Origin: Psammoneis japonica
Taxonomy: Eukaryota
DNA length: 64,000 bases
Assembly (NCBI GenBank): GCA_008632985.1
Contig: QPGO01000090.1
Span: 62,001-126,000, forward strand
Direction of reading: 5' to 3'
The notes below the pieces were generated by a model that did not search any database, was not told the origin of the DNA, and saw only the letters and a program-made list of their open reading frames with translations. How positions within the stretch are numbered: position 1 is the first letter of the stretch; every line of letters begins with the position of its first letter. The translations under genes and the position numbers were made by a program. Positions 6,414-59,950 of the stretch are shown piece after piece.

Positions 6414-6515
6414 TGCAATGAATGATTTTTGAATTTGGTTCATGGGCAGCCCTCCGTTTTGGAAGTTAGGCTGCAGTGAGAGAATGGAATTCATGGGTAT
6501 AGACGTCTGCAGCAG

Positions 6516-7847: not shown

Positions 7848-7852
<5 letters not shown>

Positions 7853-7880
<28 letters not shown>
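7853..7880. repeat. (CT)14 microsatellite
   Basis: Directly visible. Confidence 0.95.
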
Positions 7881-7884
<4 letters not shown>

Positions 7885-16398: not shown

Positions 16399-16920
16399 CA
16401 CGGGATCCACGGATGCACCAGGGGAATCTGCGAAACGCGGGATGAAAGGGGAAAGGGGCAAATGTGAATGGTGGAAAAGTGACATGCTGCTGTTTTACCT
16501 GGAGGGACCCTTTGGTCAGCCAAACACGCTTGTTGCCGATTTGACCTCGCAGGTCGTCTTTTGAGGTCGTTAATTTGAGAGAGCAGACGCGGTCTCTAGA
16601 AACAATTTTGTGCATTTCATCAGACCATTGACATTGTGCAAATCTGAAAACGACACACATGAAAAAGTGAATTTTCAACTTTGTGTGACCTTCACAGCCG
16701 TGCACATTGTGCAACGATCAATCCTCAAGACGCGTCCCGTCACAACATTTTGACACCCCCCACAAGACGGACCTGTGATGGTCAGATGAGAAATGTGCGT
16801 GTGTTCGGCTCACTGAAGGGACCCTTGAGGCACAATGACAGCCCCTCACTTTCCCACCATTCCCATTTGCCCCTTTCCCCTTTCATCCCACAATTCCCGG
16901 GTGCACCCATGGATCCCATG
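16399..16920. mobile_element. TTAA-flanked MITE with long imperfect TIRs (piggyBac-like)
   Basis: TTAA|CACGGGATCCACGGATGCACC ... GGTGCACCCATGGATCCCATG|TTAA. Arms stay complementary for well over 100 bp (GGGATGAAAGGGGAAAGGGGCAAATG). Confidence 0.8.
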
Positions 16921-18215
16921 TTAAAGCTGCACATCTGGAGTGGTGGTCTTTGTGCAACTTTCCAGCACTGCAGTGGAGAGAGATTTTTCTCAGCAACTGA
17001 GCACATTGTCAAGACAGCTCAGCAAAACACTTTGCACAATGGCATTTTTGTGGCATCATTTTTCTTGTTTGTGCAAGGGATGTGATGCAGCAGTGAAAGG
17101 CAATGGAGAAGCATCTTAAGTTGCACAGAGCATGTGTGAGGTGTGTTTTCTGCCTTTGTTTTGTTGCAGCAAAGCATGATTGCAGTGAGCCTGGTGCTGC
17201 ACCACACGCATCCTGCACAGTGTGCATTTTCTCTGTGCAATTGTGCACTCCATGACTGCAGATCCCTGCACTGCATGCTGTGCATTGAGCCTGTCCCTGG
17301 GAGCAGAAACAAGCCAAGGACAAAGTTTTCAACTCATGCACCATGCGACATCTCAGAGTGGGGGGATGTGAGAGTGTGTGTGGTGGCTGGTGCTCACCAC
17401 AGACAGCTTGGACACCACATTTTGACATGCAAGCACAAACCCATCATGCAGGTTCCACTCGTGTGACTCTGTGTGACATGGTGCAACAATCTGCAAGATC
17501 CATCATCCCAGCTGGTTGAGCATGCAGCCAGAAATGAAAGACACAATGACTGCACAAGAGCAGGCCCTCTGCTCTTGCTGGCTGCAGCAGCCAGGCTGCA
17601 ACTGGAGCTGCACTCTGGAGTTTTTGAGCAGATTTCCAAGCAACTGGCACTGCACCTCCTCACCCAAGTTGAAGCTCATTTTTTGGAGGGAAAACAAAAA
17701 GTGCAAGGATTGTCATGTGTCAGGTTGCTCAACAACGATGCTCACAGCAGCTTCTTGAAAATCCTTGGCTTTTAGAGCTGCAACCTGTGCCCACCTTCCT
17801 CACCCACCTGTGAAGCTCCCTGAGTGCCAAGGTGCACAAACCCACCATGATGCCTGATGTCCAAAAAATTGCTTGCATCAAAACATGTGCATCAGCTGTT
17901 CTCGTGGACTCTTGCACTCACAATCAATGGATGCCAGCAGACCTGTGGGCAGAGCACTGCAATGCAAAATTCAACATCCAATGAAAAGGGAGCCCAAATC
18001 ATGGGCAGAAAGATGAAAAATGTGTGTGGCGGTGTCAACAGCATTTAAAATTTGATGGAAAAGAACAGCGTCACAATGTTGCCCATGGCAAGGGTGGGTT
18101 GTTGGGGGCTGCAGTGTGAGAATGCAGCTCATGGGAATGGTGTCTGAACAAAGCTGTGTGCAGTGGATGAGGTGTGTTTTGCCAGCTCAAAAAGACATGT
18201 TCATCAACTCACATG

Positions 18216-18427
18216 NNNNNNNNNNNNNNNNNNNNNNNNNNNNNNNNNNNNNNNNNNNNNNNNNNNNNNNNNNNNNNNNNNNNNNNNNNNNNNNNNNNNN
18301 NNNNNNNNNNNNNNNNNNNNNNNNNNNNNNNNNNNNNNNNNNNNNNNNNNNNNNNNNNNNNNNNNNNNNNNNNNNNNNNNNNNNNNNNNNNNNNNNNNNN
18401 NNNNNNNNNNNNNNNNNNNNNNNNNNN
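18216..18427. other. Assembly gap (N run)
   Basis: 212 N. Confidence 1.
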
Positions 18428-18579
18428 GGGAAGATGGCCAGACAAAAAGGGGTGTGTGAAAGATTGTCCTGTCCAAGCCACACACAATTGAGTGTCTGCC
18501 TCCTGCTGCCCTCTGAAACATTCCAATGAAGTCATGCAAACTGCAGTGTGAGAAATCAATTCATGGGAACAACATCAGC

Positions 18580-19660
18580 CTGCAGTTGACTGTGGAGCAC
18601 AGTGATGCCTGCATTGGTTTTGATGCTCAAAAGAAGAAGAAGAAGAAGAAGCACACAAAAAGTGACCACAAAGATGGCCAGGACATGGTGGTGAACAACA
18701 TCAATGAGTGGCCTCAACTCTTGCTTTTCAGGCAAAGTTGTTTCTCCTCAAGACTCTCTGCTGTCTTCTGTTTCATGATGTGCAATCTGCACTCCCAACA
18801 TGATGCAATGGCCTCACAGCCAGCAACTTCCCGGAGCTTGCAAAGTGCAAAAGCCCTCCACATTCTTTGCCCTTCACAGCTTCACACACTCATTGGTGCA
18901 AAATTTCCCACATGCAATGTGGAGGAAGTCAATGAGTTGTGCCTGTTTCAAGACAAAATGCATCAAGAGCTTGTCTTTTGAACCCAAAAATGGACACATG
19001 CTCAAGGGTGTTGTTTTGGAAGCCCCTCTGGGTTTGCCTGTTTGCTTCCCACTGTTGCACCAAGGACTCCACTGTCCTGGTTCATGCCCTCTTTCAGACA
19101 TTTCATGGCACATTTCAGGCCAGCTCCTTGCTGTGAGATTTGGAAGTGGGTGGGTTGGCAGCATTTGAGAATGGGGACTTTTGGAGTTGTGGCTGCAATC
19201 CTGTCACTCTGTGAGCTCTGTTGCTCCACGACATGCAACAAGAGCTTTTCCCAAGAATGGCACACTGAGTTCAAATGGAAAAGGCAGCTTGGCAGATTTT
19301 TCCTGAATTTTGTGCAAAGCATTGGTGATCTCACATCATGTGATGTGCACAAAGCCCGCCTTTTGCTTTGATGCTCCATCTGAAAAAAGACGCTGACACT
19401 GGCTGCACCAAATTGGCTGCATCAGCATCCACAGGCATGACTCAAATTTTTTTGTCAGCTCATCAACCTTGGCTTGGACTTTCTGCCAAGTTGCCAAGTT
19501 TTTCTGTGCTGCTTCTTGCGCTCCTTGTTCCAGCCCTTCAGCTGGCCCTCTCTGGAGCACCGTCAAACAACCTTGCATCTCACACACTTCTTCAGATCCT
19601 TTGGCAAAGATGAGAAGCATGGAAAGTTGCTGCAATTTTGAAAGCTCACATTGCTGCTGC
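18580..19660. pseudogene. Hypermutated paralogous copy of 6510-8550 (F-box-like 5' part and MYND 3' end), lacking about 7170-8145
   Basis: Collinear matches such as GACTGTGGAGCACAGTGATGCC vs GACTGCGGAGCACAGTGATACC, and CCTTGCATCTCACACACTTCTTCAGATCC vs CCTTGCATCTCCCGCACTTCTTCAGATCC. Confidence 0.85.
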
Positions 19661-20584
19661 GCTCAAGCCAGTGCCATGGACAGCAAACACCTTTTCACCA
19701 CCGCCAGCTCTCTTGAGCAAGAGGACAAGGGGAGGCACTTGTGGTCTTGCGGCATCCTCTCATGCTGGCGCTGGTGCTCCTCCTGGCAGCGGGTGAGCTC
19801 CTCCTCCTCCTCCTTGTCCTCCACCCTCATTGCAGCACACACACACAAAAGCCAGGGGAAAAAGATGCACAAAGCTGTTTTCTTGTTGCAGAGCCGGCTC
19901 CAGTGAGAGTGGAAAACTTGTTGTGGCTGCTGTGAGTGGGGAGGAGCAGCAGCACTCATTTGTCTTCTCAGTGAGTTTGGCTCTTGTCAAAGAGCAAAGC
20001 ATTTTCCAGTGGGCAATGGGTGCAGATGGGTTGGTTGGAGGAAGTTTTGAAATGAAGAGGGGTGCAGGGGGCTTTGAAATGGAAGGGAAAAGGGGGTTGT
20101 CCAACGCACAATGCGATCTTGTTGACAGCAGGTCACGTGTTTCTTGGAAGAGGATTCTCGTTGCTGCTTTTTTTTTTGACAATCAGCAGTGCTCCAGCAG
20201 AGATTGTGGCTGCTGTGGACTGAGTGATGCAACTGCAGTTTCCAGCCAGAGGCCCCACATCATCATGTCATTTTGTTCATTTGCGCTCGATTGCACGCAC
20301 CTCAGGCACCTGGCTGGAGTCGTCAACTCCTCGTGCGCGTCAGTGGACGCATCACAACTTGAAGTTTGTCATGAACCCTCGACAGCTTCAGCCGACGCAG
20401 AACATCTTTCGTGGATTCTTTTGAACAAAAAGAAGAAACCAAGCACACAACGCATGTGCGAGCATTGCCGGCATCGCCGCTGCTGTCACCAAGCTGAGAT
20501 GACCGATGCCAAGCACAAGGCCGCTGTTGATTGTGCCCGCAAGGACGTTGAGGGGATGTTTGAGAACTCAAATCTGCAAGATGA

Positions 20585-23411
20585 GGCACGTTCCCACCCT
20601 GACAATTTCGGCCGTAAAACAAACACAATTTCGTTCTACACAAAATTGCTGTAGAAACTCTCGTACAAGAAAAATCGCACGTCTGTTTTCCATCCGCCAA
20701 TTTAGGCACGTTCCCACCCCGATAATTTCGGCCGTAAAATAAATGTAATTTCGTTCTACACAAAATTCCTGTAGAAACTCTCGTACAAGAAAAATCGCAC
20801 GTCTGTTTTCCATCCGCCAATTTACAGCCGAAATTATCAGCAAATTACGACGACAGGTGTCGGTCGTCGTAAATTCTCTCCCGTAAATATAATTTTCACG
20901 GTAAATTCGGCGTTTTGGGAGCTCGAACGTGCCACGTCACACAAGCCGCCCATTTTTTTCTTTCTCCGCTCCGCCCGATCGCACAACAACCATGATGGCT
21001 GCTGCCATGAACGGACCCGTTCATACACGAACGACCGTCCTGTCTACGAAGGTAAGAATGTAGAGACAGGTCAATAAGACTACGCTCGATACGATCAAGC
21101 TGTCACAATTTTGATTTTTCGTTGTTGTTATGGCTTATGACGACCGTGTCGACTAATGGTATTTTTGATGTCTTCGTTTCTCTTGTTCAGATTTCGCGTT
21201 GGGATTCTTCACAAACCATACGTCTACAGACTTGAGGCCGAATCCTCGTAGCAATATATTATGATCTGATGTTACATTGAGGTGGTTCTTTGGTGTGTGC
21301 TCAAGGTTACTTGATTGACGGTCAAGAGTCAAGAATGCAATATTTTGGTCACTTCAACAACAACAGGAAGGCTTGTTGTGATAGAATATGACTATGAAGA
21401 AGGCTGTGTGCACTTATTTCATCAATCTTGTCGGAAGTTAGGACAATGATGCCGGTGGGGGTCAATGTTTTGCGCAACATCGTCGGCATTGTGCCTCACA
21501 GTGCCTTACTCTACTGTCTGGAGGCCTTCTCTGCGACTTGCTCTTTGTTACTTTGCTCTTTGAAATGGATTTAGGCCAATGGTGAACTGCAAGAGTTGAC
21601 AATGGTGCCTTTTAGTACCTCACATTCTGTAGAAATTACATTTAGTAGTTTTACATGCTGTAGTCTCACTGCATGCCATTGTTTCGTGCGTCTTTCTGAT
21701 CTCTCTGCAACTCTTGCTAGTGGATTGAATGTTGGATATATTTCTTCTGACCTTCACTGGTGTTATCCTGAGTCTTGGGTTACCGTAGAGCAATCGCAAA
21801 ATGGACAACGATTGTCGCTGACAATGTTGTGGTGTCTCTCTAGCTAGCAGCTCTAGCCAGTGCTGTAGTAGCAGTGTAAACAGTGCTGTGGCGTGTAGCG
21901 TCCTCACCGAGCTCGACATGAGATTTTGATCTTTTTTACCGATCGAATTCGTTCCCAGCCTGACGCCCGTAAATACGTAAATTTGGCCAAATTATATTTA
22001 TTTTACGGCCGAAATTGTCAGGGTGGGAACGTGCCTTACAGCCGAAGTTGTCAGCAAATTACGACGACAGGTGTCGGTCGTCGTAAATTCTCTCCCGTAA
22101 ATATAATTTTCACGGTAAATTCGGCGTTTTGGGAGCTCGAACGTGCCACGTCACAAGTTCCCCATTTTCTTTCTCCGCGCCGATGTTCGCACAACAACCA
22201 TGATGGCTGCTGCCACAAACGGACACGTTCGTGCACGAACGACTGTCCTGTCTACGAAGGCAAGAAGGTGGAGACAGGTCAACAAGACTGCGCTTGACAC
22301 GATCAAGTTGTCAGAATTTTGATTTTGCGTTGTTGTTGCAGCCTGTGACGACCGTGTCGACTGACGGCATTTTTGATGTCTTCGTTTCTCTTGTTCAGAT
22401 TTCGCCTTGGGATTCTTCACATGCCACATGTCGATCGACTTGATGCCAAAACGAAATGGAAACACATGGTTTGATGTTGCGGCGACGCGGCTCTTTGATG
22501 TGTGTTCCGGGTTGTCCACTTCTGGGGCTTCGATTTGATTGAGGGTCAAGACCACACAAGGTTTGGGCATCGACGAAAAGAAGGCTCATGCTCCGTTGTA
22601 ATCGAACATGGTGGTGAACAAGGCCACGCGCACTTTTTTCATTGCTCTTGTCACAAGTTGGCACAACAAGACTGGCGGGGGTCAACTTTTTGCACAGCAG
22701 CTTCGGCAACGTGCCGTGCAGCACCTCGCTCTGTTGTTTGTTCTGTTTTCGTGATGCACCCAGATCACTTTGAAGCCATGGGGTTTGATCTTACATTTGC
22801 ATCAGTGTTTTTGCAATTGCATTGGAGTTTCAATGCTTGGTCTCGCCCTGCATCCTGTGACTCGGGGCTTCTCTGCTCGGTTGCCCCGCCGGTGCGGCGC
22901 ACAAAGTTTCTTTTTGCTCCGGGCTTTCCCATCGCCACTGCATTGCCCTGACCTTTGTCCAATGGAATTGCAGCAAAGGAGCGCCGTTGGACAACGTCGC
23001 GGTTGCCTTTTAGAAGCTGGGATGAAGTGCAACTTACACTGTGGCAGTGCTCCTGTCAACGTGACTGCGTGCCGCTGCAAAAAGAAAACACATTCGTCGT
23101 GCTTTTCTCTCTGCACTTTCACTTGACAGTGGATTGGATGCTTTTCTTCTGATCTTCACCAGTGCAATCATGAGTCTCAAGTGTGGGGCAATCGCAAAAT
23201 GGACAACGACTGTCACTGACAAGGTTCGTGCGTTCGATGCCTGTCCCACCAGTGGAGCTGTTAGCAGCAGCGTTCTCACCGAGCTCGAGATGTGATTTTG
23301 ATCTTTTTCATGTACGGTTCGAATTCATTCCCAGCCTGACGCCCGTAAACACGTAAATTTGGCCAAATTGTGTTTATTTTACGGGCGAAATTATCAGGGT
23401 GGGAACGTGCC
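20585..23411. mobile_element. PIF/Harbinger-type non-autonomous element (outer copy, about 1.49 kb of own sequence)
   Basis: TIR GGCACGTTCCCACCC.GA.AATTTCG..CGTAAAA at both ends. 3-bp TSD is TGA on the left (mutated) and TAA on the right. Confidence 0.88.
20705..22035. mobile_element. PIF/Harbinger-type non-autonomous element (inner copy nested in a relative)
   Basis: Same TIRs with a perfect TTA TSD (20702-20704, 22036-22038). The outer element resumes at CAGCCGAA after it. Confidence 0.92.
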
Positions 23412-24994
23412 TAAGTCTGACGAATTCCCGAAATTTACCAAGCAAGAGCTCAAACTCGGAAAGATCCTTGGCAAGGATGGCGTTTTCACCGTAAACGAGG
23501 TACGCGCCTTTTTGGTGGGAGGGGTCAAACAGGAAAAAACCAAAAGGGGCAAGGAGGATGAGCAAGTGACGGATGGTGAGAGGGAAGGTCGCGATTTCAT
23601 TGCGAAACACTGCCTTCGTACGGTGGCAATGCACGTTCTTATGCTGTCAAGTACCTTGCAAAGGACAGGATCGGAGACGACCTGGGTTTGTACATTCAGG
23701 TCATCAAGGACCTAGCTATCGAAACGCGTTTCTTATCAAGCATTGTACATCCTAACATTATCAAGTTGAGAGCCACGTCGAATCTAGATCGCTTTGAAAA
23801 AGATTACTTCATCGTGATGGATAAGCTTTATGATACCTTGGACAAGCGTCTTGCCAAGTGGCAAAAGATCAACAAGGGAACCCAAGGCTTGGTTGGAAAG
23901 CTTGCACATCGAAACGGGAAAAAGGCGATCAAACTCATGCAGGATCGACTTGTTGCTGCTTTTGACCTCAGTGCCGCAATCGAGCATCTACACGAGCACA
24001 GGTGATGTATCTGAGAATTGAGTGCCTTCACATTCTGCTGCCCGCTACTAGCTAGTAGCCCCCTCTAACCTGCTTCTTATTCCACCTATTATATTTGACT
24101 GCGCAGAATAATTTACCGTGACATTAAGCCAGAAAACGTCGGTTTTGATGTGAGAGGCGACATTAAGGTTTTCGATTTTGGCCTTGCCAAAGAGATTCAT
24201 CCTGAAATGAGGGTGAGAACAGCGACACATACAAGTTGACGGGTTACACCGGTTCCATTCGATACATGGCTCCTGAGGTAGCCCTCTGCAAGCCTTACAA
24301 TTTTGTGGTGGATACCTACAGCTTCTCTATTCTGCTATGGGAAATTTTGGCCTTGGAAAAACCTTTTGCTGCATACTTGATGTCGAGCTTTGCTACCAAG
24401 GTGCACAATGGAGGAAAGAGGCCCTTCATCAAGGAGGAGTGGCCTGTGCCCATCAAGAATCTCCTCGCAAATGGTTGGTCAGAGGACATTTCGGAACGTC
24501 CTCAAATGGGGGATGTTACCCAGATTCTCAAGAGTGAACTTGTCCGTGTGCATTTCGGTGAAGACACGGGACAACTTGAACACGAACGCAGGCGCTCAAC
24601 CTTTGTCTTTGAAAAGGGACAGTGAGTATCCTTTTCTGAACGCTTTCTAACTGCATTTCAGAGTTTTGTGTATGTACACCCCTATTCCTAGGAGAAAAGC
24701 CTTTCGAATCAATCACTGCGGCTTGGTTTACACATCGAGGGTGCTACACGACTTCAGCCAAGTAGATGGGTTTCCTTTGCATTTTTTCAATCCGTTATAT
24801 TTTCACATGTACGTGTACTCCAAATCCATGTTAGTTACAAAAGTAACCGAGATTTCTTCTCTTTCTATTTATGTATCTTTGCATGCCTATTGCTTCTCTG
24901 CAAAAGTCTTTCAAAACACACAGTCGCTTGGTTTGTATTACGATAGCGAGCGACACACTCTTTGTCTCTTACCACAACAAAAGACTTGTGTTAC

Positions 24995-25867
24995 TCAAAA
25001 CAACTTGGGAAGCAACATTCCGGTCTGTTTCTTCCACTCGTTGTATTCTGGATACCGCGACAGAGACTTTTCCTTGGTTGGTATGGTAACGAGGCAGGAA
25101 ACCGTCACAAGATACGCAATGGGGACCCACGAAAGGGGTTTCTTGTACCCCGCCACGACAATCATGGCCAACCACATTAGATATTCACCCAAATAGCTTG
25201 GATGACGGATCCGTGAGAAGAATCCTTCCGTAATGAGACCAGAACCGGCGTATTTTAACGTGAAGAACTTTTGTGCATCCGCCGCATAATGAAAGAATCC
25301 GCCAATGACAAACAGAAAGGATGATAGAAAGGTCTCGTACACGGTCAGGGGTTCTTCGTTCTTGACGGCAAGGTAGGGGTACAAAAAGTACAACGACACA
25401 AAGGCAGCACCCGTCAAGACGAAACCCAATCCACCTTGATTATCAGGTGCATTGTAAAATTGCTTGTCCCAAAAGATGTACGACTTGATCACCCAAAGCA
25501 CACCGTATCCCCCAAACATGCCAGCCATGAGACCGGCACGTGGTGTGTACGAATCAAAAGCCACCATGAGACCGAGGGCTAACGGAAGCCAAACCGCCTT
25601 GTGAAATTCAAGCATGCGTCCTACAGAGTATTTTCCATGAGGCAGCACGGCCTTGCCCATGGGGTCTTGTTTAAGACGACGACCAAACGCACCACCGCGA
25701 GGCACCAGTGTCACACGAACCGATGATGATTCTTTTTCTCCATGGAGTGAAAATGATGCCAATTGAGAGAGCGGCTGTGTTGGAGACATTCGGGCTGCCA
25801 CAGAATCATGAATGCAATAAAATGTCAGCAGCGCCACGATGGACGAAAGGAATGGATGACTCCTCAT
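24995..25867 (-). CDS. DUF1295 / steroid 5-alpha-reductase-like membrane protein with signal peptide
   Basis: ADAQKFFTLK..GLITEGFFSRIRHPSYLGEYL, KEKSLSRYPEY..WKKQT and several hydrophobic segments. Likely start MRSHPFLSSIVALL. Confidence 0.85.
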   Translation of the reverse strand: MRSHPFLSSIVALLTFYCIHDSVAARMSPTQPLSQLASFSLHGEKESSSVRVTLVPRGGAFGRRLKQDPMGKAVLPHGKYSVGRMLEFHKAVWLPLALGLMVAFDSYTPRAGLMAGMFGGYGVLWVIKSYIFWDKQFYNAPDNQGGLGFVLTGAAFVSLYFLYPYLAVKNEEPLTVYETFLSSFLFVIGGFFHYAADAQKFFTLKYAGSGLITEGFFSRIRHPSYLGEYLMWLAMIVVAGYKKPLSWVPIAYLVTVSCLVTIPTKEKSLSRYPEYNEWKKQTGMLLPKLF

Positions 25868-26049
25868 GGTTTCCACGCAGTTCGATTGTTGTGTGTTGTG
25901 TGTCACTGTGTCACGCTTTCGAAAAGAGGAGAAGATCGCAAAGTCAAAAGATTCAAGATCGGAGCGAGATCGGACATCGGGTGTGCGCATGCATAGCTAT
26001 GCTCGCGTTCGTTTGTGTGCAGATGATGAACGGATGAATAACAGACGAA

Positions 26050-29000
26050 CGAAGTGTCAGTTGAATGAACGAACAATGACATGTGTGTGATTGTGTGGTG
26101 TAATCGGAGACACTGCTTCTTTCCACTCGGCAAAAATGTTCATCACCTCTTCCTTGATTTGTGTTGCCATTTTGATTGACATCTCCCTTCCTGAACTGCA
26201 TTGGTTGCTCTGACCATTCTTCGCCCGCTTTGGATGGGAGAGGGCCAACCGGTGAACCAATCCTAAGATCTCAAAGAGGTGTGTTCTTCATGGCAAGTCA
26301 TTTGGACATTTTGTGCATGACAGTTCAACAAATGACAAATCAGGTTGCTGCTGACATGTCCTTGAGTGCCACATGCACTTTTCTTTTTTTGTTGTCGTTT
26401 TTGAACGCACCGGGAGTGACAAAGTTTGTCACAACATCATCATTTGCCCATGTGCCAAACAGCTTTTGGTTTGTTGCTGCAATTGCACTGTTTGTTGGGA
26501 TGCATTTGCAGATGGAAGAAGCCCTCAAAGACTGCAACAAAGGCTTGTTGCTGCAACCAACTTGTTTCAAGGCCCAGCTTTGTCGTTTCTCCATCTGCCT
26601 GCTGCAAACAACAATTGGAGAAACATGACTGCACACTTGAGGATGCTCTGATGGTCGTCAGAAAGCCAGGTTAGTCTGAACTCAAAAATTCAACCACTTC
26701 CTGATTGGAACAACTGAGCAAGGAACAGTTTGAGAAACTCTGGCAGGAAACAACAATGGGGCAGCTCAAGGATCTTGGCAACTCTGTTTTGGGCAACTTT
26801 GAGCTCTCTCTTTTTGGGATCTTTGTCCCAACACCAGATCCTGCAGCACATCATTCAATCAAAATGACAAGTGGAGCCAGGTGTTTAAATCAAAGCTCAT
26901 TTCAATCCATGTGTTCTTTTGAGTGGGTGGATGGCATGGATGTCAAAGCAAAGGATTGCAAAGAGAGTCTCTTCTGTGATTCATGCAAGCCACCCAACAG
27001 AAAATGCAACAGCCTCTTTCTCAGGAATGCCACATCACTCCAGAGCACACCACCATTTCTGGAGTGTAAAAACACAAAGAGTCACTCTTTTTGTGAGACC
27101 CAGTCACTGCCAGAGTGGGTCACTTGAATCTTGCAGTTGTTGAACAAGTGTCAGAACGTTGGCTGTGTGGTGCAATTGGAGGCACTGCTTCTTTCCACTT
27201 GGTTGAAATGTTTGTCCCCTGTTCCTCAATCTGTGTCACCACTTTGATTGAAGGACCAACAGGTGAACTGACATGCAATCTCAAAGAGTGGAAACTGTGC
27301 AATGTTCATGGTCAGTCAATCAGAGATGTCTTGTGTGACAGTTCAACAAAAGACAAATCAGGTCTCTGTCTGCACATTCTTGAGTGCCATGTGCAACTTG
27401 GTTTTTTGCAGCGCCATTTTCAAATGCACTGGAGCAAGAAAGTTTGTTGTGGCATCATTCAATGACAAAGACATTGCAAAATCAATCAATGTGGGAATGC
27501 CATCATCATGTTCTTGGTCAATGTTGACTTGCACTTTGAGCTCTTGTCCTTGTTGAGGCCATGCTTTGTGCTTGACTCCATCATCATTGTCATCATCAGC
27601 AGTGTTCTCAGGCAAAATGCAAAAAATGCAGGCTGTCCTTTCCAAAATGGCTCTGACACCACCCTCCAGCCACTCTGCAAATTTCAAGCTCTGTTCTTGT
27701 TGCACTGAATTGGTGGGGCAAGAGAAAAGGGCAAACAGGAGTCAGTCTTTTTCAGGAGACAAACTTGCCAGTCCAGTGAATGGGGGGAGTGCCACACAGC
27801 CCAAAGATCTTGAAAACTGACAACCAACAGCAAAATTCAGGTGTCATGTGAGCTTGCCACAAAGGAGGTCAAAGCATGCCAAACAAAGATGGCTGAGGGA
27901 GCTGAGTTCCAGGGTGGGGTTAGAGAGGGAGCAGGTGCTGTTGAGAATCAGCAGCTGAGGCTGCTTCTGCTGCTGAGCAAGCCCACCACAAGGTGACCAG
28001 CAGCAAAGCAGAGCAACTTGGGCCAATCTGTGTGGCAGCTGAGAAGTGGTGAGCAGCCTCAGCAGGTTTGTGAGCTGTTTTGTTGCTGCCTTGAACCTTT
28101 CTCTCTTTGTGCTCAAATTGTCACTGTGCACCCCTGCAAGTGAGTTAACACATGCATCCCAAAAGCAAGTGGGAAAGAAAAGAGGGGCTCAGAGCAGCTG
28201 CACCATGATGCACAATCTCAGAGGGGGGGGGGGGGGGGGCAGGTGAGGCAGCAAACAGGCCCAGTGCAGGTTTGAGTTGGATGCATGCATCTGCAGGGTG
28301 CTGCAATTTCTTGCCTGGCACCAGCAGGTGTCAGAAGCTGTGTGCAGCAAAGGTCATGGAAGACAAAAAGATGAGCTTGTGGTGGCTGGAAGTGCCTCAA
28401 AGCAGGCACCATGTGAGTGCCAGATGAGCTGGTTGAGGCCAATGGGAAAGAGAAGGGTTCAAGCAGTGTCGGGGAAGGCTTGAGCCAGGTGCAATGCTGG
28501 CACAACAGAGAAATGTGTCCACTGAGCCAGCTCAAAAAAAAACTGACAAATCTGGTGAATGTCACCAGAAAGGTGGTGCACAGCAATGCTGGGTGTCAAC
28601 ATGTTTTTTGTGTGTGCCAACTTCACTCTTGTCAGCCATCTCTCTTTGCCTTTTGGCTGCGACTTTTTTGTGGCAACTTTTCCAACATTTCCAACAAAGC
28701 ATTGGCTGCTTGTAAGCTGCTTTTTGAAAGTGGGCTTTCATCAGTGATGATGGTGACAACGCAGAGGAAAAGAGCAGTTGTGGTGAGAAGTTCCTGATGA
28801 AGCAACCACCACAGCCATTAACACACACATGGACAAAGATGGAAAAAGCTGGCACATGCCAAGTGCAGAAGAGCTGTGCACTCAAAAAGATGGAAAGTTC
28901 CAGTGGTGACAGTTTGGAGATGGGCTGCAAGCATTGCAGGTTAAAAATTCACCCACAGTCAAATGAAACATTTGCTCTGTCTGAAAATTGTTGAGATGGT

Positions 29001-29480
29001 CATCAGCTTTGTGAGTTGTTTTGTGAACCTTTTTGTGGGGTGGTTCTACCTGGGTCATCAGGGTGCCCACTCCTGCCTCAGTGTGATTGCAACCAAGGTT
29101 GGATCTTGTGCGAGAAGAATCTTGCATGGATGCAAACCATCTTGACAAATGTCTTGGGAACTGCAGTGCACTTTGCAATGAAAGGCAGCCAAAATTGGCA
29201 AAAAAGATGTTCGAACTGTGGCAACAGACCAATGTGTTTATCGTGTTTTAGCCTGAACCCTTTCAGGGAACATTTGTGCTGGTTGTGTGGAAGGACGTGG
29301 CACTGTTTCGAATGCAGAAGAGAAGACACAAGCTTGGCTGGAATATCAAGAAGTGACCTCCTTACAGATTGCAATGTTGGTTGTCAATCATGGATGTGTG
29401 GGAAAGGGAAATGCAACGGAAAATTGAGCAGAGAAGAAGAAATGGCGTGTCCAGACTGCCGTTGCATTCGCTGAAGAAGA
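26050..29480. pseudogene. Hypermutated block 2: decayed gene(s) with an internal duplication (26090-26430 ~ 27160-27460) and a Cys-rich 3' remnant ending at 29474
   Basis: TA and CG depleted. Duplicated segment CACTGCTTCTTTCCACT...GACAGTTCAACAAA.GACAAATCAGG. CxxC clusters in ORF 29016-29474. No TE motif recognised. Confidence 0.55.
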
Positions 29481-29485
29481 GAAAG

Positions 29486-30742
29486 CTAGAAGCTACATTC
29501 AAGCAACCTCCAGAGAATGTGTTTCAGATGCTTTTCTTTTGAAGAGCAGTGTAAAAAGATGTAATGATAGACACAAATTTTGAATTTTCGCCCTGCATTA
29601 ATGCTGCTTCCCGTCTTGTTGTGGATTTCAGAGACTCCGTCTGGAAGCACCTGTCGAACGTTGATGTTTACTCGATGCTGAGAAAGATAGACCGCTAGCG
29701 CCTCTCTTTCGGAATCTGGCACCAGGCATGTTGACATGGCGGCATCATTTCTTGGACTCACATTCTGTCGGTCCTCTGAAGAGGTACATTCATTATTTGT
29801 TAAAGTAAACTCTTTGGAAACACTGGGGATGGGTACAGCTGCAGGTATCACTCTTGCCATCCCATGAAAACACAATCGGCTTTTCCCTCCCATCATCATG
29901 ACATCTCCAGGACGAACCAAGATTGGAACAACCGGATCTTGTTTTGATTGGCCGCCCAAGAGAAACACTGCTGCTAGCCCCAGACTCATGGACACGACGG
30001 GCTTGTCTAACGCGTACTCCAAATCATCCTGATGACCACCCATGATGGACTTGCAGTGGTAGAAGTTCACAATGCATGCAGACGAAGTAAACTTGAGTGC
30101 TGATGGTTTGGAGGACGGATTTGTATGCCATAGCGACGTCAGTGCAAAGGATGACGCCAATCGAGCTAGATACTGGGGCACTGGAGATTTGGCCTCTTCT
30201 CGATAAGCTCGAGCTGTCCAATCATAATGATATCCCATTGTCGACCACGAAAGTTTGTCAAAACTTCGATACTTCTTCTTTTTCTTCTGTTTGCCGTTTC
30301 TATTTTTCCGACTTTTGTCGTCGTTTCTAGTGACCGACGACGACACGTTTTGCTGCTTCCAGAGTTCCCACATGGAATCATCCGTGTTATTTTCTTCCAC
30401 ATGTTCTCGTGGCGGCATGAGATCAATGTTCGTTCTGTGTGGTTTATCGCAATATTGGGAAACAGAAAGATATGCGAGCTCCATTTGAACTGATTCAGAG
30501 AGCGCTTGAGGTGCGTAGAGAAAATCCGGAGCAGAAGATATGCCATACAGGGGTCCAATGTATTGTTCCGGATGGATCGGTTCAATGGCTTCTACTTCGA
30601 AGATTCGGTCATCTTCTCGTGGATTGGAAAAATCTGCAAGCTCCGTCAAGTCGTCAATCCGATTGGGCGAAGCTCCTTGTCGACGGTGTCTCTGTTGTGC
30701 CCGTTTGAACACGGATGTCCCGCCATCTGCACTTGTTGCCAT
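29486..30742 (-). CDS. ALKBH1: AlkB-family 2OG-Fe(II) dioxygenase, ALKBH1-like
   Basis: LSWSTMGYHYDW, IVNFY...GGHQDDLE (HxD), SMSLG..AVFLLGG, GDV..MGGKSRLCFHG and RVNINVRQV. The extreme C-terminus is uncertain. Confidence 0.88.
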   Translation of the reverse strand: MATSADGGTSVFKRAQQRHRRQGASPNRIDDLTELADFSNPREDDRIFEVEAIEPIHPEQYIGPLYGISSAPDFLYAPQALSESVQMELAYLSVSQYCDKPHRTNIDLMPPREHVEENNTDDSMWELWKQQNVSSSVTRNDDKSRKNRNGKQKKKKKYRSFDKLSWSTMGYHYDWTARAYREEAKSPVPQYLARLASSFALTSLWHTNPSSKPSALKFTSSACIVNFYHCKSIMGGHQDDLEYALDKPVVSMSLGLAAVFLLGGQSKQDPVVPILVRPGDVMMMGGKSRLCFHGMARVIPAAVPIPSVSKEFTLTNNECTSSEDRQNVSPRNDAAMSTCLVPDSEREALAVYLSQHRVNINVRQVLPDGVSEIHNKTGSSINAGRKFKICVYHYIFLHCSSKEKHLKHILWRLLECSF

Positions 30743-31178: not shown

Positions 31179-32221
31179 ATGAGAGTCACTACAGTCGCAC
31201 TTGGAGTCGTCCTCCTTTCTACGGGCGTCTCATCGTTTGTTCCCGTGTCACATCGACATGCTGTGCCTCGTGCATTTGTCTTGAATGCCAAGAAGAAGAA
31301 AAAGAACAAAAAGAAAAAAGCCAAGGTTCAAAAGTCGTATGCAGAGCTGCTTGGACGCACAGATACAAGTCAGGATGGTGAGAACGACACAAAGGAACTG
31401 CATGATTTAGCTTTTCAGTGAAGGAGTCTAACGGATAAAAATTGATTTGACTGTTTTCTACAGAAGGAACTACAACAATGGTCCTGGAACCACCGGCTGT
31501 AGAGGAAACTGTCGCCGAGGCAGCGCCAGTTGCAGAAGAACCTGTTGTCGAGGAACCAGTCGCAGAGGAAGCACTCGTCGTTGAGGAACCAGTTGCGGAG
31601 GAATCGCCTGTTGTGGAGGAGGAACCCGCCGTCGAAGAACCTGTTGCGGAAGAAACACCTGCTATTGAGGAGCCGGTCATTGAGGAGGAGCCCGTCATTG
31701 AAGAACCTGTTGCAGAGGCCGCTCCTGTTGTTCAGGAACCGGTTGTAGAAGAACCTGTTGCAGAAGAAACACCTGTTATTGAGGAGCCAGTCGCAGAGGA
31801 ATTGCCAGTTGTGGAGGAGGAACCTGCCGTTGAAGAACCTGTTGCTGAGGCTGCCCCAGTAGTTGAGGAACCGGTTGTAGAAGAACCTGTTGCCGAGGAG
31901 ACACCTGTTGCCGAGGAGCCAGTTGTGGAGGAGGAACCTGCCGTTGAAGAACCTGTTGCTGCGGTTGCCCCTGCAGTCGAGGAACCGGTTGCCGAAGAAG
32001 CTGCTGTTGTCGAGGAAGAACCTGTCGAGGAGCCTGCTCCTGCAGAAACTGGACCAAAGTTACAAGATGCATCTGTTTACGAATCGATGGGGGTAGAGGA
32101 GCGTGCATTTAGCATTTTGGCCGACCTTGGGATGGTTGGGCTCAACACTGACCCAGAAGATTCTTCGTATGACAACTCCAAAGATGACGAGCTTGTGGCG
32201 GATATTATCTACGAAGAATAA
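31179..32221 (+). CDS. Plastid-targeted protein with poly-Lys patch, long acidic EEPV(A/V)EE repeats and a short C-terminal domain; 2 exons (31179-31377, 31464-32221)
   Basis: Signal peptide ending VSS-FVP. The intron 31378-31463 (GTGAGA..ACAG) joins SQD-E-GTTTMVLEPP in frame. Confidence 0.85.
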
Positions 32222-35303: not shown

Positions 35304-36096
35304 GGCGTTTGAAGTTCTACTCTTCTTTTTTTCTAGTGACTGAAACTGTCTCAATTCTTCTCAAGGCAACACAATCTGTGCCTTCATGCACTGAGCACGT
35401 TGAAAATGTTTCAAGTTCATGAGCAATGAGCAACGAGCAGCTCACAGCACGACGAGAGTGTTCTATTCTCGCGGTGATGCTGATACCGCCGCGTGTAGAA
35501 ACCTACGGAGAAGTACGTACGTGAGCTTGGAGGGAGAAACGAGAGAGGGACGGACGCCGTAAGGACCGCAGTCGCTCGGTCGTAGCATGAATCTACCGTA
35601 TGAGACGTCGAACGTGTTGTAGAAGTCATTGGGCACAGGCAATGGACTCCAGAGCTCATTGGTGATGTCACACCAGGCGATCCAACCAGATTTGCAGGGT
35701 GTGGCTGCCAGGTGCGTCCAGGAACCTCCGAATTGACTCCGGGTCAAACTCTCGTGTTTCATCAATGCATCTTACAAAATGTCCTCTTCACCTTTGGGTG
35801 ATCTGCCAAGCCCAAAGAAACAGATTTGCCAAATTGGGGGGAGCGACACAGCCAGTCAACACCTCTTCCATTGACTTGCAGTTGTGCAAACCATCTGGGA
35901 TTGGGTGCAGGGCTTCAGGCCAAGGAGCCAGCAAGAGAAACTTTTTTGAACCACTCCGCCATGGCATTGAATGACGCTGACTGCCCTGTGGCGCCAATGC
36001 CAATCTAGAACAACAGTCAGAGCTTCTGCAAATTCACTGCTCTTCCCAGAAAATTGCCAAAGGCAGAGGCAAACTCTTGCAGGTTGAGACAGGAGG

Positions 36097-39000
36097 TGTT
36101 GAACCGGCAAGTCAATGTTGCCAAAAGGGAACCCGCAAGGCTTCTTGCGCGCCACTCATTGCACTTGCCCTGGTTGCTTTGGCAGCCATGCTTTGAATGG
36201 AAGTTGTTGACACAAACTTCAAACTCACAGTGCACCGGGCACCCAGCAATGCCGCAACACAAGTTGTGCAAGCCAGGTGATTCACTCCAAAGAGCGAGAC
36301 AAACTGAAAGGTGAGCAAGATTGGTGATGATGAAATGCCAAGCACAAAAAGTCACCAAATCTGTCACATCAGGATCTTCAACATCTTCTCTTCAACATGT
36401 CTGGGTTCTCTGTGTTCCCGCTGTCCACAAATGCTCTCCAACACACTCCTGCCACTCTCAACAATGTTTTTCTTTGTCTTGGGGGATGACATGCCCTCAG
36501 TTGCCTGCTTGCGGTTGTCCTTCAAATCAGCAACAGTGTGTCACATCATGAGCACAATCCACAAAATGCTCCACACGGTTGCGGCAAAATCTCTCCTTGT
36601 CAACTTGCTGTCCTGGTCCTTGGCCAGGTCCACAACCCAACTGCTGATCACCTTGGGGGTCAAATCAAAAAATGCCATTTGCTTGCAAAACTGCTTGTGT
36701 GTGATTTCCATGCAGGGAAAAATCATGGTGTGGAAGAACAGCGCCAACCTCTGTGCATCACAAATGATGCCATCGTTGTCCCTCACAAGTTTGTAAGGGG
36801 TCAACATGATGTCATGGCTGGGAGTCTTGATGAGCTTCACAAGGGCGTCACATGCCCCACTCTTGTCCATGCCACAGGTGGGCAAACAAATGTTCATCCT
36901 TTTTCACAAGTCACGAGTGTCACTCTTGCTCAAGGCCAACTGCAAATCATGCCCTTCAATTGGGAAACATTCTCACCTCTGTGGGGTTCTTCATCACCTT
37001 GTCACCATGCAGACAACAACACATTCTGCCTTGTCTTGAGGCCCAGCTCCCCCAACAACTTGCCAATGTTCTTTGGTCTTGTGAGCTTCATCAGCTCAAT
37101 GCTTTGTCTCAGATGTTCCCATTGGATCATCACGAATGGAGAACATCAGCACAGCAGCGGACATGCTGTGCTCTTTTGTTTCAAAGTCCCACTGTGCCAT
37201 CTCTTCATGCACTTCTGTGATCAACTTGCACTTGCCCAGCCATGAGCCCTTCCACAGCCCTGATGGCTCCAGCTCCCCCCTGCAGGAAGGCACTGTTGTG
37301 TTCTTGGGGTTTTCAGCTTGCATCTGGTCACAATGCAGCCAAACACCTCCTGCAGGTCCAAGGTGTCTTTGCAGAGGTGCAGATCACAAGTCAGTGTTTT
37401 TTGCCTGCTCTTGTTCCATCTTGTTGACCCCTCCATTGGTCTGTTGCAGTCTTCATCTGTCACTCATTTCTTGCACCCTTGGTTTGCTCAAACCTGGAAT
37501 TTCTTGTCCAGTTCAGGTGCTTGAGAGAGAACAGACCAACTTTCCTCAATCTTCATTCCCAGGTGCTCTGACTCATGTGCATGATGCTGCAACAGTGGGG
37601 TGCACATCCATGTGGCCTCTCTTGGATGCAAACAACTCCTTGGCTGCCCATGTGTGGGATGTCTGTGCTTTCTCTGTTGGCAGTCCATTGCCACTGGTGT
37701 CAAAAGGGTTCTCGCCTGCTGGCACGATGGCAGCATCTGCACTCTCAGTCTTTTCTGGGAACTGATCAATCATCTTGTGAGCACAGTTGGTCATGTCAAC
37801 CTTCACCTTGCTCTTGCAGCTGAAGTCCAGTGTCAAGCCAAGACAGTCACATCTTTTCCCTTGTGTGGCAACAACTTTGCCATGGCTTCCACACATCTTG
37901 CAAGCAAGCTCAAAAACTTGTTGTTTGCTTTTGCATTCTCAAAGCTCACTGTCATGTCATCCACATGGAATTGGACAGTGTGCTGTTTGCCATTGACTGT
38001 TCAAGAGCAATGCATGGATCACATGGGTTGAACTCAAACCATGTCTTTTTTCAAGTCTTTGTGAAATTGCTTGCATCCCAGCAGAGCCACAGTCAGCATG
38101 CCGCAGATGGCTCCAATTGTGACTTGGATGTGAAGGACTCTCTTGCATTTCTCCAGGACCACACATGTGGCCCATGTGGGTTGGGATCAATGCTTGCCAG
38201 CATGTTGACCAACACTCATGTGATCTTCATCACAATCTGGTCTTTGCCTTCCTCAGGCTCTGGCATCATTGTCTGTGCACTGAATGCATTTGATGTGTTG
38301 GCACTCATGACATTGCACTTTTCATTGGTCTCAATGACAGTCATCACAAATGTTCCTTCCAAGGATGCTGTCAGGCTTGTCTTTGTGCAGCCATTCTCGG
38401 GTTTTGGTTTCCCACTGCAAACCATTTGTCCTTTGATTTGACCATGTTGCTTCTCAGTTGGGAACATCAAGGCTGCCATTGCCTTGGTCCTTTCAGTTGG
38501 GGCAGTCATGTCCTTGACTGAAGCTGGTGCAAAGCACACTCCATTGTGCAGTTGTTTCATCTGTTTCTCTGAGGCATCATGCCCCTCTGGCCAAGTTCTT
38601 CAAGGCCTTTGTGTGACAACTGTTGTTGTGCAAAAGATGCACTCTTTCTACTTTGGAGTCAGTCACTGGCACTGCACATGAAGCATGCAAGTGCCATTGC
38701 TGTCTCCATTTCACATTCAATGTTGTCCTCTGGATTGGGGCTCACATTTGCACATGGATGGTGGCAGTGCTTGAGCCCATTTTGCTCTTTTGTTGCTTTT
38801 GCAATGTCTTCCACACATGCAAATCAAACTTTCTTTTCTCTGTGTTCATGCAATTTCATGGTGAAGGATGTGATGGATGCCTTTCCACTTCTGGCAGTTC
38901 TGCTCAGCACAACTCTTGCCTCTTCCCCCAATCTGAAATCATTCTTCTTCCCATCTGTTGTCTTTCTGGGAATTGTTGTCCTCTTTGAACTCTTTGTCAT

Positions 39001-59922: not shown

Positions 59923-59950
59923 TTAAAAAAAAACTTTCATCTTTTTTTAA

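Follow-up and report, generated by a model that had tools for sequence, protein, structure and literature searches.

Why has DNA just upstream of an apparently intact gene lost nearly all of its TA dinucleotides and kept its CG? Positions 25870–26420 raise this question within a 64-kb window, by which we mean the whole stretch of DNA that was analysed. A sequence-only reading had described such zones as a halo of TA loss around CpG-depleted blocks. It attributed them to an A>G activity that extends further than CG methylation and decay, or precedes them, in the way a processive enzyme or long patches of repair would act. We find the TA-lost, CG-kept rim partly confirmed and this interpretation of it partly supported.

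The TA-poor zone and the neighbouring gene

The following features define the locus.

24995–25868, minus strand: apparently intact gene for a DUF1295/steroid-reductase-like membrane protein (Pfam PF06966, E = 3.5e-13)
25870–26420: focal zone, TA nearly gone, CG normal (TA after 5/168 T, CG after 25/113 C)
25672–26411: measured rim of 739 bp, from the TA to the CG maximum-likelihood change point
26092–26440, plus strand: inner rim, a diverged copy of core sequence 27164–27458 (repeat comparison)
26411–29199: core block, CG and TA both lost (composition, hidden Markov model (HMM), change points)

The TA count of the focal zone (o/e 0.13) departs strongly from the normal rate of 0.149 per T (P(≤5) = 3.4e-7) and cannot be told apart from that of cores (0.012, P = 0.053). 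The CG count (o/e 0.88) matches the normal rate of 0.229 per C (P = 0.48) and greatly exceeds that of cores (0.0295, P = 3.4e-15). The zone has thus lost TA and kept CG, as claimed. None of its five surviving TA is an RTAY site, as in cores. Change points place the TA border at 25672 (95% support 25629–25738) and the CG border at 26411 (26250–26454).

A rim of this kind might reflect no mutation at all. Ordinary composition of promoters or UTRs, RNA-level selection against UpA, chance, or an error of assembly or base calling could each leave DNA poor in TA. TA is indeed under-represented throughout normal DNA of the window (o/e 0.5–0.7, with certain coding windows down to 0.21–0.25), and cytoplasmic RNA has been described as under selection against CpG and UpA (PMC3829696). 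Yet intergenic stretches elsewhere in the window have TA o/e of 0.75–0.95, which sets the focal value well apart, and the survivors lack RTAY in the manner of cores. Selection on RNA dinucleotides is rejected by the copy comparisons below, which show conversion and not avoidance. A base-calling artefact is rejected by contigs from sequencing run X1, which reproduce the sequence at about 60x depth. One of them, 3,869 bases long, spans 23441–27305 and differs from the window in two letters; X1 is perhaps the source sample, so that its agreement lends no independent support. Taken together, an origin without mutation is hardly credible.

The product of the gene, with the start set at the Met that precedes a signal-like segment, has 385 homologues, the best of which is a diatom transcript at 56% identity, and a contig from run X2 covers the gene up to 25827. 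Gaps in X2 cover, in parts of the cores and over 25828–26200, carry no weight here, since the kind of this run is a guess. Contigs of run X3 gave no match to the window; all three runs come from one sample. The TA change point falls within its first ~65 codons, where TA stands at 2/38 compared with 26/145 in the remaining gene, a contrast too weak for a claim of its own. TA loss probably enters the coding part by 130–240 bp, and these TA-poor codons are the one feature that directly, if weakly, suggests spread into host DNA. Positions 26092–26440 are, judged by sequence similarity, repeat-derived and not unique host promoter DNA, because they form a diverged copy of the core sequence (80.7% identity over 88 nt, 67.5% over 154 nt). 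The statement that TA loss reaches the upstream region of an intact gene holds for the 5′ flank of this apparently intact DUF1295-family gene.

Nested footprints of TpA and CpG loss

The window was segmented with two independent two-state HMMs, one for TA and one for CG. The resulting classes comprise 22,224 bp of normal DNA, 6,877 bp that lost TA but not CG, and 34,899 bp with both lost; the class with CG lost and TA kept comprises 0 bp of the 64 kb. Across nine parameter settings, TA-only DNA amounts to 6.5–7.7 kb and CG-only DNA to 0–0.5 kb. The depleted DNA totals 41.8 kb in six segments, with 0.012 TA per T as opposed to 0.149 in normal DNA. Within cores CG falls to 0.0295 per C from 0.229; CG o/e is 0.0–0.2, TA o/e 0.0–0.1, and TG/CA o/e 1.8–2.2 at unchanged G+C. 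Genes keep a CG o/e near 1. Hence, in this window CpG-depleted stretches are always enclosed by TpA-depleted ones, never the reverse. Cores are slightly more TA-exhausted than TA-only DNA, as TA in mixed contexts survives at 4.4% in cores and at 12.3% in TA-only DNA (P = 8.7e-4).

Borders were located as maximum-likelihood change points with 95% support intervals. All seven block borders have their TA change point further out than that of CG (sign test, one-sided P = 0.008); two of these borders, B8 and B9, flank one intermediate region and may not be independent. At five of the seven the support intervals are disjoint, and there the TA-poor rim reaches 0.3–1.7 kb past the CG border. At the other two the gaps measure 76 and 39 bp and the supports overlap. 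Only four borders adjoin a gene. With disjoint fronts at most borders and no CG-only DNA, the TA footprint is indeed the wider one, and HMM classes, change points and parameter settings agree that the TA-removing process is separable from CG decay.

The other zones that had been listed as edges with TA loss and retained CG are real as a group and uneven in quality. They and further features of the blocks are given here.

20278–20608: second clear rim, TA 0, CG normal (change points), ending at the terminal-inverted-repeat element (20584)
20584–22036, plus strand: copy 1 of a ~1.4-kb terminal-inverted-repeat element, TA and CG normal (repeat comparison)
22120–23311, plus strand: TA-only island, interior of tandem copy 2 (22036–23412) of the same element
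49825–51548, minus strand: TA-only zone with an open 519-codon frame (49862–51418, minus strand)
53013–54179: TA-only zone, CG partly decayed, at the onset of the next core (change points)
16399–16919: miniature inverted-repeat element with TTAA on both flanks, inserted in a core
59342–60495: CG-rich, TA-poor island in a depleted region, itself an internal tandem duplicate
47059–48057, plus strand: reverse transcriptase and RNase H remnants (RVT_1, E = 2.7e-4; RT_RNaseH, E = 4.6e-6)
18541–19665, plus strand: core copy of normal sequence 6471–7109 and 8156–8547, which reads out both conversions

The zone at 20100–20580 fits its description fully (TA 0/120, CG 25/125). At 49900–52990 TA is low (38/798) and CG somewhat below normal (137/790), but the zone is heterogeneous and its part 51549–53016 retains some of its TA. 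The zone at 35640–36300 has lost TA (2/145), but its CG is already reduced (o/e 0.36). Further along, 53017–53923 holds TA 0/200 and CG 26/214. Two zones have no separable halo: 9870–10200 (TA 6/81, P = 0.03) and 29200–29480 (TA 4/69, P = 0.017) are weak and correspond to the borders with gaps of 76 and 39 bp, respectively.

Confining this pattern to block edges proved too narrow. The island at 22120–23311 (TA 6/347, CG 72/298) is 1.2 kb long and lies about 1.8 kb off the nearest core. Conversely, islands that kept CG and lost TA sit within cores at 13679–13999, 16400–16808, 40814–41028 and 59342–60495, the last with a CG o/e of 1.46 and a TA o/e of 0.26. Because TA-only DNA occurs away from edges and CG-kept islands occur inside cores, the pattern is a nested footprint and not a rim alone. 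Scans of the 64-kb window for tRNA and Rfam families gave no match, and the CG-kept islands are therefore not known RNA genes.

The DNA affected by TA loss includes retroelement remnants, the TTAA-flanked miniature element, a copy of the terminal-inverted-repeat element, a duplicated host segment and an orphan frame. Pfam searches with the 222 frames from the blocks that run 90 aa or more from stop to stop matched four at E ≤ 0.001, namely RVT_1 (a match under the Pfam cut-off), RT_RNaseH and two weak, below-cut-off matches to unrelated families; the other 218 had no match at this threshold, and no viral gene was recognised. By these domain matches, the core at 47059–48057 appears to hold a decayed LTR-type retroelement. 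The named best matches of two proteins encoded in the window are from diatoms. For a 2OG oxygenase in the window, a protein atlas pointed to an ALKBH1-like family, with no informative lineage.

The orphan frame at 49862–51418 contains no tyrosine codon, and frames of this length have a chance expectation of 0.001. Searched against proteins of 284–907 residues, it matches none at E ≤ 0.001. Loss of TpA by transition never makes a stop codon out of a sense codon, and it erases tyrosine codons, which accounts for long open frames in TA-depleted DNA.

One could read the rims as a mosaic, in which separate sequence units with exposure histories of their own happen to lie at block edges. One end of the terminal-inverted-repeat element, a family of ~20 copies by X1 depth (~1260 versus ~60), coincides with the TA border at 20608. 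The zone from 49.9 to 51.5 kb is one 519-codon frame, the inner rim at 26092–26440 copies core sequence, and the CG-kept islands 13679–13999 and 16400–16808 coincide with inverted repeats. Against this reading stand the identical sign of the offset at all seven borders and the absence of CG-only units, since a random mosaic predicts a single sign only if TpA loss is consistently the earlier or the wider of the two, which is the very question under debate. The pooled profile is also graded and not stepwise: aligned on CG borders, TA is already at 0.30–0.42 of normal in the outer 400 bp, and CG declines from 0.21 to 0.04 of normal across the inner 2 kb. We therefore regard a mosaic as unlikely.

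Conversions, target context and strand

Two pairs of related copies reveal what became of the lost dinucleotides; all differences are fixed between copies and unpolarised with respect to an outgroup. The partner copies at 6471–8547 and 20584–22036 are unmutated. In the core copy at 18541–19665, none of 29 TA is kept and 20 now read TG or CA, while 1 of 47 CG is kept and 39 now read TG or CA. At the 57 TA of element copy 1, copy 2 keeps 16 and reads TG at 17 and CA at 12. It has thus lost 41 (72%), 29 of them to TG/CA. At CG it keeps 43 of 62, with 12 losses against 15 gains and so no net loss. Both conversions, TA to TG/CA and CG to TG/CA, are directly visible in these comparisons.

These copies also bear on the possibility that there is one domain and two speeds, meaning that a shared silencing intensity fades towards the edge and acts with a higher rate constant on TpA than on CpG, without separate targeting. 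Such a gradient would explain why CG loss is strictly nested in TA loss and why both dinucleotide profiles are graded around borders. It also agrees with the rate of the TpA process reported for Bigelowiella natans (below) and with the miniature element inserted in a core, which has lost its TA (3/98) at normal CG density (21/91) and whose arms differ at four CG/TG positions. The island at 22120–23311 argues against it. By transversions this island is as old relative to its sister (8.3%) as the core copy is relative to its normal sister (7.7 and 8.2%), yet it lost 72% of its TA at no net cost in CG, whereas the core copy of equal age lost 46 of 47 CG. Nor does a shared gradient fit the CG surplus of the TA-poor island 59342–60495, or the log-retention ratio, which is not constant at ~0.2 outside and ~0.8 inside the CG border, a step inflated by alignment on that border. 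We consider two speeds within one domain rather unlikely. The same pair of equal-age copies (CG 43/62 versus 1/47) speaks against a purely temporal reading. That TA loss precedes CG decay is compatible with the data, as in the miniature element, and falls short of proof.

The TA process prefers T-A-Y. Surviving TA in the 41.8 kb of depleted DNA comprise 1 RTAY, 51 mixed and 89 YTAR sites, compared with 236, 474 and 156 in 22.2 kb of normal DNA. YTAY sites became TG over CA by 13:2 and RTAR sites became CA over TG by 10:6 (Fisher P = 0.009). A>G differences amount to 46–59% at TAC/TAT and to 2–11% in most other contexts; they are also raised outside TpA, to 21–32% at N-A-C (pairwise, unpolarised), which makes "TpA only" an approximate description. 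Since TpA is self-complementary, A>G after T is inseparable from T>C before A. The A>G activity that had been proposed is therefore one reading, and T>C before A is equally valid.

If an A>G enzyme worked processively outward from a methylated core and past its edge, or if long patches of repair did so, TA-poor rims such as the 0.3–1.7 kb seen at five borders would be left. But where an unmutated sister is known, the TG and CA outcomes, each the sign of hits on a different strand, are intermixed (17 runs, 15.1 expected, z = 0.75), and over 2-kb bins of depleted DNA a TG/CA skew is absent (−0.09 to +0.09). There is also TA-only DNA about 1.8 kb from any core, in the island at 22120–23311. Because the TA process leaves no strand-coordinated tracts, this part of the earlier interpretation is unsupported, and we judge it very improbable.

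Known mutators and a proposed explanation

The closest parallel comes from mutation-accumulation lines of B. natans, in which de novo TpA>TpG/CpA hypermutation is confined to integrated viral DNA, has a rate of 1e-7 to 1e-6 per site and generation in certain lineages, and is proposed by its authors to be a defence against foreign DNA (Mettrop et al., bioRxiv 10.64898/2026.01.13.699255, 2026). As far as that preprint's main text describes it, the TpA mutator of the window matches this process. Target dinucleotide, products and confinement to particular regions are the same, and both the window and the B. natans genome contain TpA-poor clusters rich in CpA and TpG with remnants of reverse transcriptase, and in B. 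natans also of transposase. The window holds both the TpA>TpG/CpA substitutions and the discrete TpA-depleted, CpA- and TpG-enriched regions.

The differences are equally clear. B. natans is a chlorarachniophyte, whereas the named best matches of window proteins are diatoms. The main text of the preprint contains no occurrence of CpG, whereas TpA loss in the window is nested with near-total CpG loss. That main text also gives no flanking-base preference (contexts may be in its Table S2), in contrast to T-A-Y here. Depletion in the window is deeper (TpA o/e 0.0–0.1 compared with a Rho of 0.45 for the B. natans viral region) and, unlike what the preprint's main text reports, it extends to a duplicated segment of host DNA and to one copy of a DNA transposon. 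Finally, the B. natans events were seen de novo, whereas ours are read as fixed differences between copies. Full-text literature searches surfaced only this preprint and no paper on TpA loss in diatoms, and they found no link or nesting between TpA and CpG depletion.

The CG component resembles the decay of methylated transposons, as it is confined to repeat-rich blocks and leaves genes their CG; the core copy (39 of 47 CG to TG/CA) and the core rate (0.0295 versus 0.229 per C) both show it. In the diatom Phaeodactylum tricornutum, DNMT5a-dependent methylation represses young transposons (PMC9998398). CpG decay alone would leave TpA in place, whereas in the window the CpG-depleted domain forms only the interior of a wider mutated one.

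Fungal RIP is likewise a dinucleotide-context transition hypermutation that inactivates repeated or foreign DNA, and it leaks into neighbouring single-copy DNA. We rejected it: RIP makes TpA from CpA, so that TpA rises, whereas TpA vanishes here, and RIP mutates both copies of a duplication, whereas one duplicated copy (6471–8547) and the ~20-copy family (20584–22036) are unmutated.

ADAR enzymes, which edit A to I in double-stranded RNA, and the tRNA adenosine deaminases ADAT2/TadA convert A to G with U or T before the edited A. In tRNA the conserved U33 precedes A34, and the bacterial TadA substrate reads U-A-C, which resembles the T-A-Y preference of the window. An adenine deaminase of the tRNA-editing ADAT2/TadA kind would be the leading candidate from the literature. 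ADAR editing followed by retrocopying is rejected by the runs test (z = 0.75) and by the non-retro sequences affected; RNA editing and reverse transcription cannot explain changes in the DNA-transposon copy or the duplicated host segment.

As the best explanation, to which we give an even chance, we propose two context-specific transition processes, the TpA process being the wider, with 25870–26420 as the outer rim of the 26.4–29.2 kb block. The window would be nuclear DNA of a diatom or close relative, in which gene-rich parts take turns with old blocks that derive from repeats and are mostly single-copy. The first process turns TpA into TpG or CpA, its target being A after T, preferably before a pyrimidine, or equivalently T after a purine and before A. 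The second turns CpG into TpG or CpA, as in deamination of 5-methylcytosine. The first has the wider footprint, and the focal zone would carry its mark alone. The domain mark that recruits a fast TpA mutator most likely covers the graded edge of the silenced domain. CpG methylation, and hence CpG decay, would be limited to the interior and absent beside the active DUF1295 promoter. The two conversions, their nesting, the offsets at the borders, the preference for T-A-Y and the lack of strand tracts are observations; the loss of CpG by methylation, the unmethylated state of the rim CpGs, the nature of the mutator and its targeting are presumed. The rims weigh against this explanation by their heterogeneity, with a younger element insertion at 20584, the orphan frame at 49862–51418 and a repeat copy in the focal rim. 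So do the two borders out of seven that show no offset, the raised A>G at N-A-C and the restriction of the evidence to one 64-kb window.

TpA hypermutation of silenced DNA has so far been reported in one preprint on one alga, the main text of which makes no connection to DNA methylation. The same signature is found here near completion in a diatom-like genome, beside classical CpG decay. Fewer enzymes remain as candidates once the T-A-Y preference and the absence of strand tracts are considered, and the open frames in TA-depleted DNA matter for gene prediction in such genomes. Somewhat short of an even chance, we suggest that in diatoms a DNA-level T-A-Y hypermutation marks silenced DNA, wider than and independent of cytosine methylation, and is able to creep into neighbouring active genes at their promoters and 5′ ends. 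As a chlorarachniophyte is reported to carry this TpA signature too, it might be an old, SAR-wide genome-defence mutator acting alongside, and upstream of, 5mC. The nested footprints, with TpA the wider, imply that two layers of genome defence follow an order or hierarchy that can be tested. A mutator able to reach the regulatory DNA of a working gene would be a possible cost to the host and a possible source of regulatory change.

TA and CG borders in the window

The window has a G+C content of 48% and a single run of 212 N (18216-18427). Long open frames in its normal DNA match ordinary eukaryotic families in Pfam. Diatoms are the named best matches of two of the encoded proteins: the DUF1295 protein shares 56% identity with a Synedropsis transcript, and the dehydrogenase 66-78% with those of Asterionellopsis, Cylindrotheca, Fistulifera, Nitzschia and Seminavis. 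On this basis the window is taken to be nuclear and to come from a diatom or a near relation of one.

Open frames in normal DNA with Pfam matches
glycerol-3-phosphate dehydrogenase
dienelactone hydrolase
MYND zinc finger
DUF1295
2OG-Fe(II) oxygenase
HAD hydrolase
ZIP transporter

Two regimes were separated in 500-bp windows. Normal DNA has observed/expected ratios (o/e) of ~0.8-1.5 for CG and ~0.4-0.9 for TA; in the depleted blocks these are 0.0-0.2 and 0.0-0.1, with TG/CA at 1.8-2.2 and unchanged G+C. TA amounts to 568/3807 T (0.149) in normal DNA versus 64/5340 (0.012) in the cores, where both dinucleotides are lost, and CG to 803/3513 C (0.229) versus 142/4818 (0.0295).

Depleted blocks (approximate, kb)
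10.3-20.3
26.4-29.2
35.8-49.8
54-59.3
60.5-64

The sequence-only reading had described zones in which TA is lost and CG kept. This was confirmed at 25870-26420, the focal zone adjoining the DUF1295 gene, and, with the corrections given below, across the window in general. TA (5/168, o/e 0.13) is indistinguishable from the core rate (P 3.4e-7 versus the normal rate), and CG (25/113, o/e 0.88) is normal (P 3.4e-15 versus the core rate). Change points place the TA border outside the CG border at all seven borders of the window; at the focal border the 95% support covers 25629-25738 for TA and 26250-26454 for CG.

Change points at the seven borders, with 95% support
TA 10316, CG 10392; support overlaps
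TA 20608, CG 20278; support disjoint
TA 25672, CG 26411; support disjoint
TA 29238, CG 29199; support overlaps
TA 35620, CG 35753; support disjoint
TA 51548, CG 49825; support disjoint
TA 53013, CG 54179; support disjoint

Two independent hidden Markov models, run on this one window, assigned 6,877 bp to TA lost with CG kept, 34,899 bp to both lost, and 0 bp to CG lost with TA kept. Across nine settings the TA-only class measured 6.5-7.7 kb and the CG-only class 0-0.5 kb. The order of the borders and the empty CG-only class support the proposal of a TA process with a longer reach or an earlier start than CG decay. In a profile pooled over the window and aligned on the CG borders, TA is already reduced on the outer side, to 0.30 of normal within 200 bp, 0.42 between 200 and 400 bp and 0.61-0.65 from there to 800 bp. 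On the inner side, CG declines over 2 kb from 0.21 of normal to 0.04, alignment on the CG border exaggerating how step-like CG appears.

The six halos originally listed fared differently. Those at 20100-20580, 25870-26420 and 49900-52990 are well supported, and 35640-36300 is partly as described, with CG already at o/e 0.36. The zones 9870-10200 and 29200-29480 are inseparable from a common TA/CG border and are not halos.

Conversion in duplicated sequences and its context

Copies inside the window served as controls and show that TA and CG were lost by conversion, not avoidance. Core segment 18541-19665 is a diverged duplicate of normal 6471-7109 plus 8156-8547. It keeps none of the 29 TA of its normal sister (20 are now TG or CA) and 1 of 47 CG (39 now TG or CA). 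The other control is a terminal-inverted-repeat element of ~1.4 kb that occurs twice in tandem. TA and CG are normal in copy 1 (20584-22036); copy 2 has lost 41 of 57 aligned TA (17 to TG, 12 to CA) and kept 43 of 62 CG, 12 losses being balanced by 15 gains. Counted only at sites outside TA and CG, these copies have diverged by 8.3% in transversions, and the normal and core sequences by 7.7% and 8.2%. The ages of the two duplications are thus similar, but CG was lost in only one of them. These figures count against the main rival explanation, a single domain in which the two losses proceed at two speeds, which we regard as possible but rather unlikely.

Together the element copies span 20584-23412, with terminal inverted repeats of 48-50 nt and a 120-bp tandem repeat at the element start. 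TA mutation has spared copy 1 and affected the interior of copy 2; the ends of the copies, with 98% identity over 120 nt, seem to have been homogenised recently. Between 6471-7109 and 18541-19202, 9 of 43 CA of the normal copy are TG in the core copy. This change needs two steps, which suggests cycling via TA or CG intermediates.

Retention of TA depends on the flanking bases (R, purine; Y, pyrimidine), as counted in 41.8 kb of TA-depleted DNA that includes, for example, 10320-20608 and 35626-51548.

TA by context in normal (22.2 kb) and depleted (41.8 kb) DNA
RTAY: 236 normal, 1 depleted, retention ~0.2%
mixed contexts: 474 normal, 51 depleted, retention ~6%
YTAR: 156 normal, 89 depleted, retention ~30%

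The three retentions match what would be expected if the two strands were hit independently at a three-base target (0.55 squared, 0.55 x 0.10 and 0.10 squared). Among surviving TA of the depleted DNA, TTAA is 6.3-fold enriched, and ATAT and ATAC are absent. With the original context read from the unmutated sister, YTAY became TG rather than CA at 13:2 and RTAR became CA rather than TG at 10:6 (Fisher P 0.009). The target is thus A after T and before a pyrimidine or, indistinguishably, T after a purine and before A. TG and CA products lie intermingled (17 runs versus 15.1 expected, z 0.75), and 2-kb bins of depleted DNA show no TG/CA skew, so the pattern reflects numerous separate hits to either strand instead of tracts. 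The cause once offered, processivity or long repair patches, is accordingly unsupported.

TA-only DNA is slightly less exhausted than the cores, its mixed-context retention being 12.3% versus 4.4% (P 8.7e-4). Surviving CG of CG-depleted DNA is enriched in CCGG (2.9x), GCGC (2.3x) and CCGC (1.9x) and depleted in TCGA (0.34x), indicating that CpG decay is slower at G/C-flanked sites. This agrees with the easier deamination of A/T-flanked sites.

Islands, rims and neighbouring genes

Rims at block edges exist as first described, but they are only part of the geometry, which is a nested footprint. The interior of copy 2 forms a TA-only island of 1.2 kb (22120-23311), with ~1.8 kb between it and the closest core, and others lie within cores.

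CG-kept, TA-lost islands in cores
13679-13999
16400-16808
40814-41028
59342-60495

The second of these is a miniature inverted-repeat element (16399-16919) with arms of ~107 nt, 77% complementary, and TTAA at both flanks, which resemble those of piggyBac-type insertions. The element is inserted in the core and shows TA 3/98 and CG 21/91; four CG/TG positions already distinguish its two arms. A near-perfect 51-nt palindrome with a 3-nt loop (13797-13901, arms 76% complementary) lies at the centre of the first island.

TA loss reaches the upstream region of a gene, as had been claimed: the focal rim spans the region 5' of the DUF1295 gene, which occupies 24995-25868 on the minus strand. The TA change point would also place the first ~65 codons in the rim, a weak extension (TA 2/38 versus 26/145 in the remaining part). 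The inner rim (26092-26440) is repeat-derived, since core 27164-27458 is a diverged copy of it; 25870-26091 has no match within the window. The rim 20278-20608 stops at the start of the terminal-inverted-repeat element (20584). One open frame of 519 codons (49862-51418, minus strand), which lacks tyrosine codons, makes up the zone 49.8-51.5 kb. Frames this long have a chance expectation of 0.001 in such DNA, and no homologue was found at E <= 0.001 among proteins of 284-907 residues. The frame resembles a former or orphan gene in which TA alone was rewritten. Because of the genetic code, the TA process turns no sense codon into a stop and removes TAA and TAG.

Contigs from two sequencing runs of one sample were compared with the window. 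A 3,869-base contig of X1, possibly the source sample, spans 23441-27305 with 2 differing letters and so reproduces the focal rim. X1 depth is ~57-65 over normal DNA and core alike (23.8-35.8 kb), so the cores are now single-copy. Depth rises to ~1260 over 20.8-22.0 kb, giving ~20 copies for the copy 1 family; as this family is unmutated here, copy number alone is not the trigger. One contig of X2, on record as a guessed DNA run, covers 23627-23998 and 24104-25827. It skips 105 bases (23999-24103) with GT..AG ends on the plus strand, as expected of a spliced transcript, and hints that the gene region is transcribed up to 25827.

A gene for an ALKBH1-like 2OG-Fe(II) nucleic-acid dioxygenase (29486-30742, minus strand) ends ~250 bp from a core-block border at its 3' end, probably by coincidence. 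The plus-strand open frame 31478-32221 consists of imperfect 15/33/66/114-bp tandem repeats, is GAGGAACC-rich and encodes an acidic Glu/Pro/Val repeat; its low TA (o/e 0.21) is due to composition, not block mutation.

Known systems and a possible division of labour

In Bigelowiella natans, two regions of integrated viral DNA are described as holding 231 of the 302 de novo single-nucleotide mutations; with one exception, these 231 are A>G or T>C on TpA. The genome has 124 TpA-depleted, CpA+TpG-enriched clusters, and the authors propose an ADAT2-like DNA adenine deaminase; the main text of this preprint makes no mention of CpG or flanking bases (bioRxiv 10.64898/2026.01.13.699255). For diatoms, DNMT5a is described as methylating and repressing young transposons (PMC9998398). 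No paper about TpA loss in diatoms, or about how TpA and CpG depletion relate, came up in full-text literature searches. A fall of TpA in place of a rise, together with the intact partner copies, excludes RIP. The absence of strand tracts and the hits in non-retro sequences exclude ADAR editing plus retro-copying.

We favour, at about even odds, separate targeting of the two processes. A TpA mutator would act over an entire silenced domain, its fading edge included, and CpG methylation would be restricted to the interior and missing next to an active promoter. A>G change is also elevated at N-A-C outside TpA (21-32%), and such change would generate new CpG.
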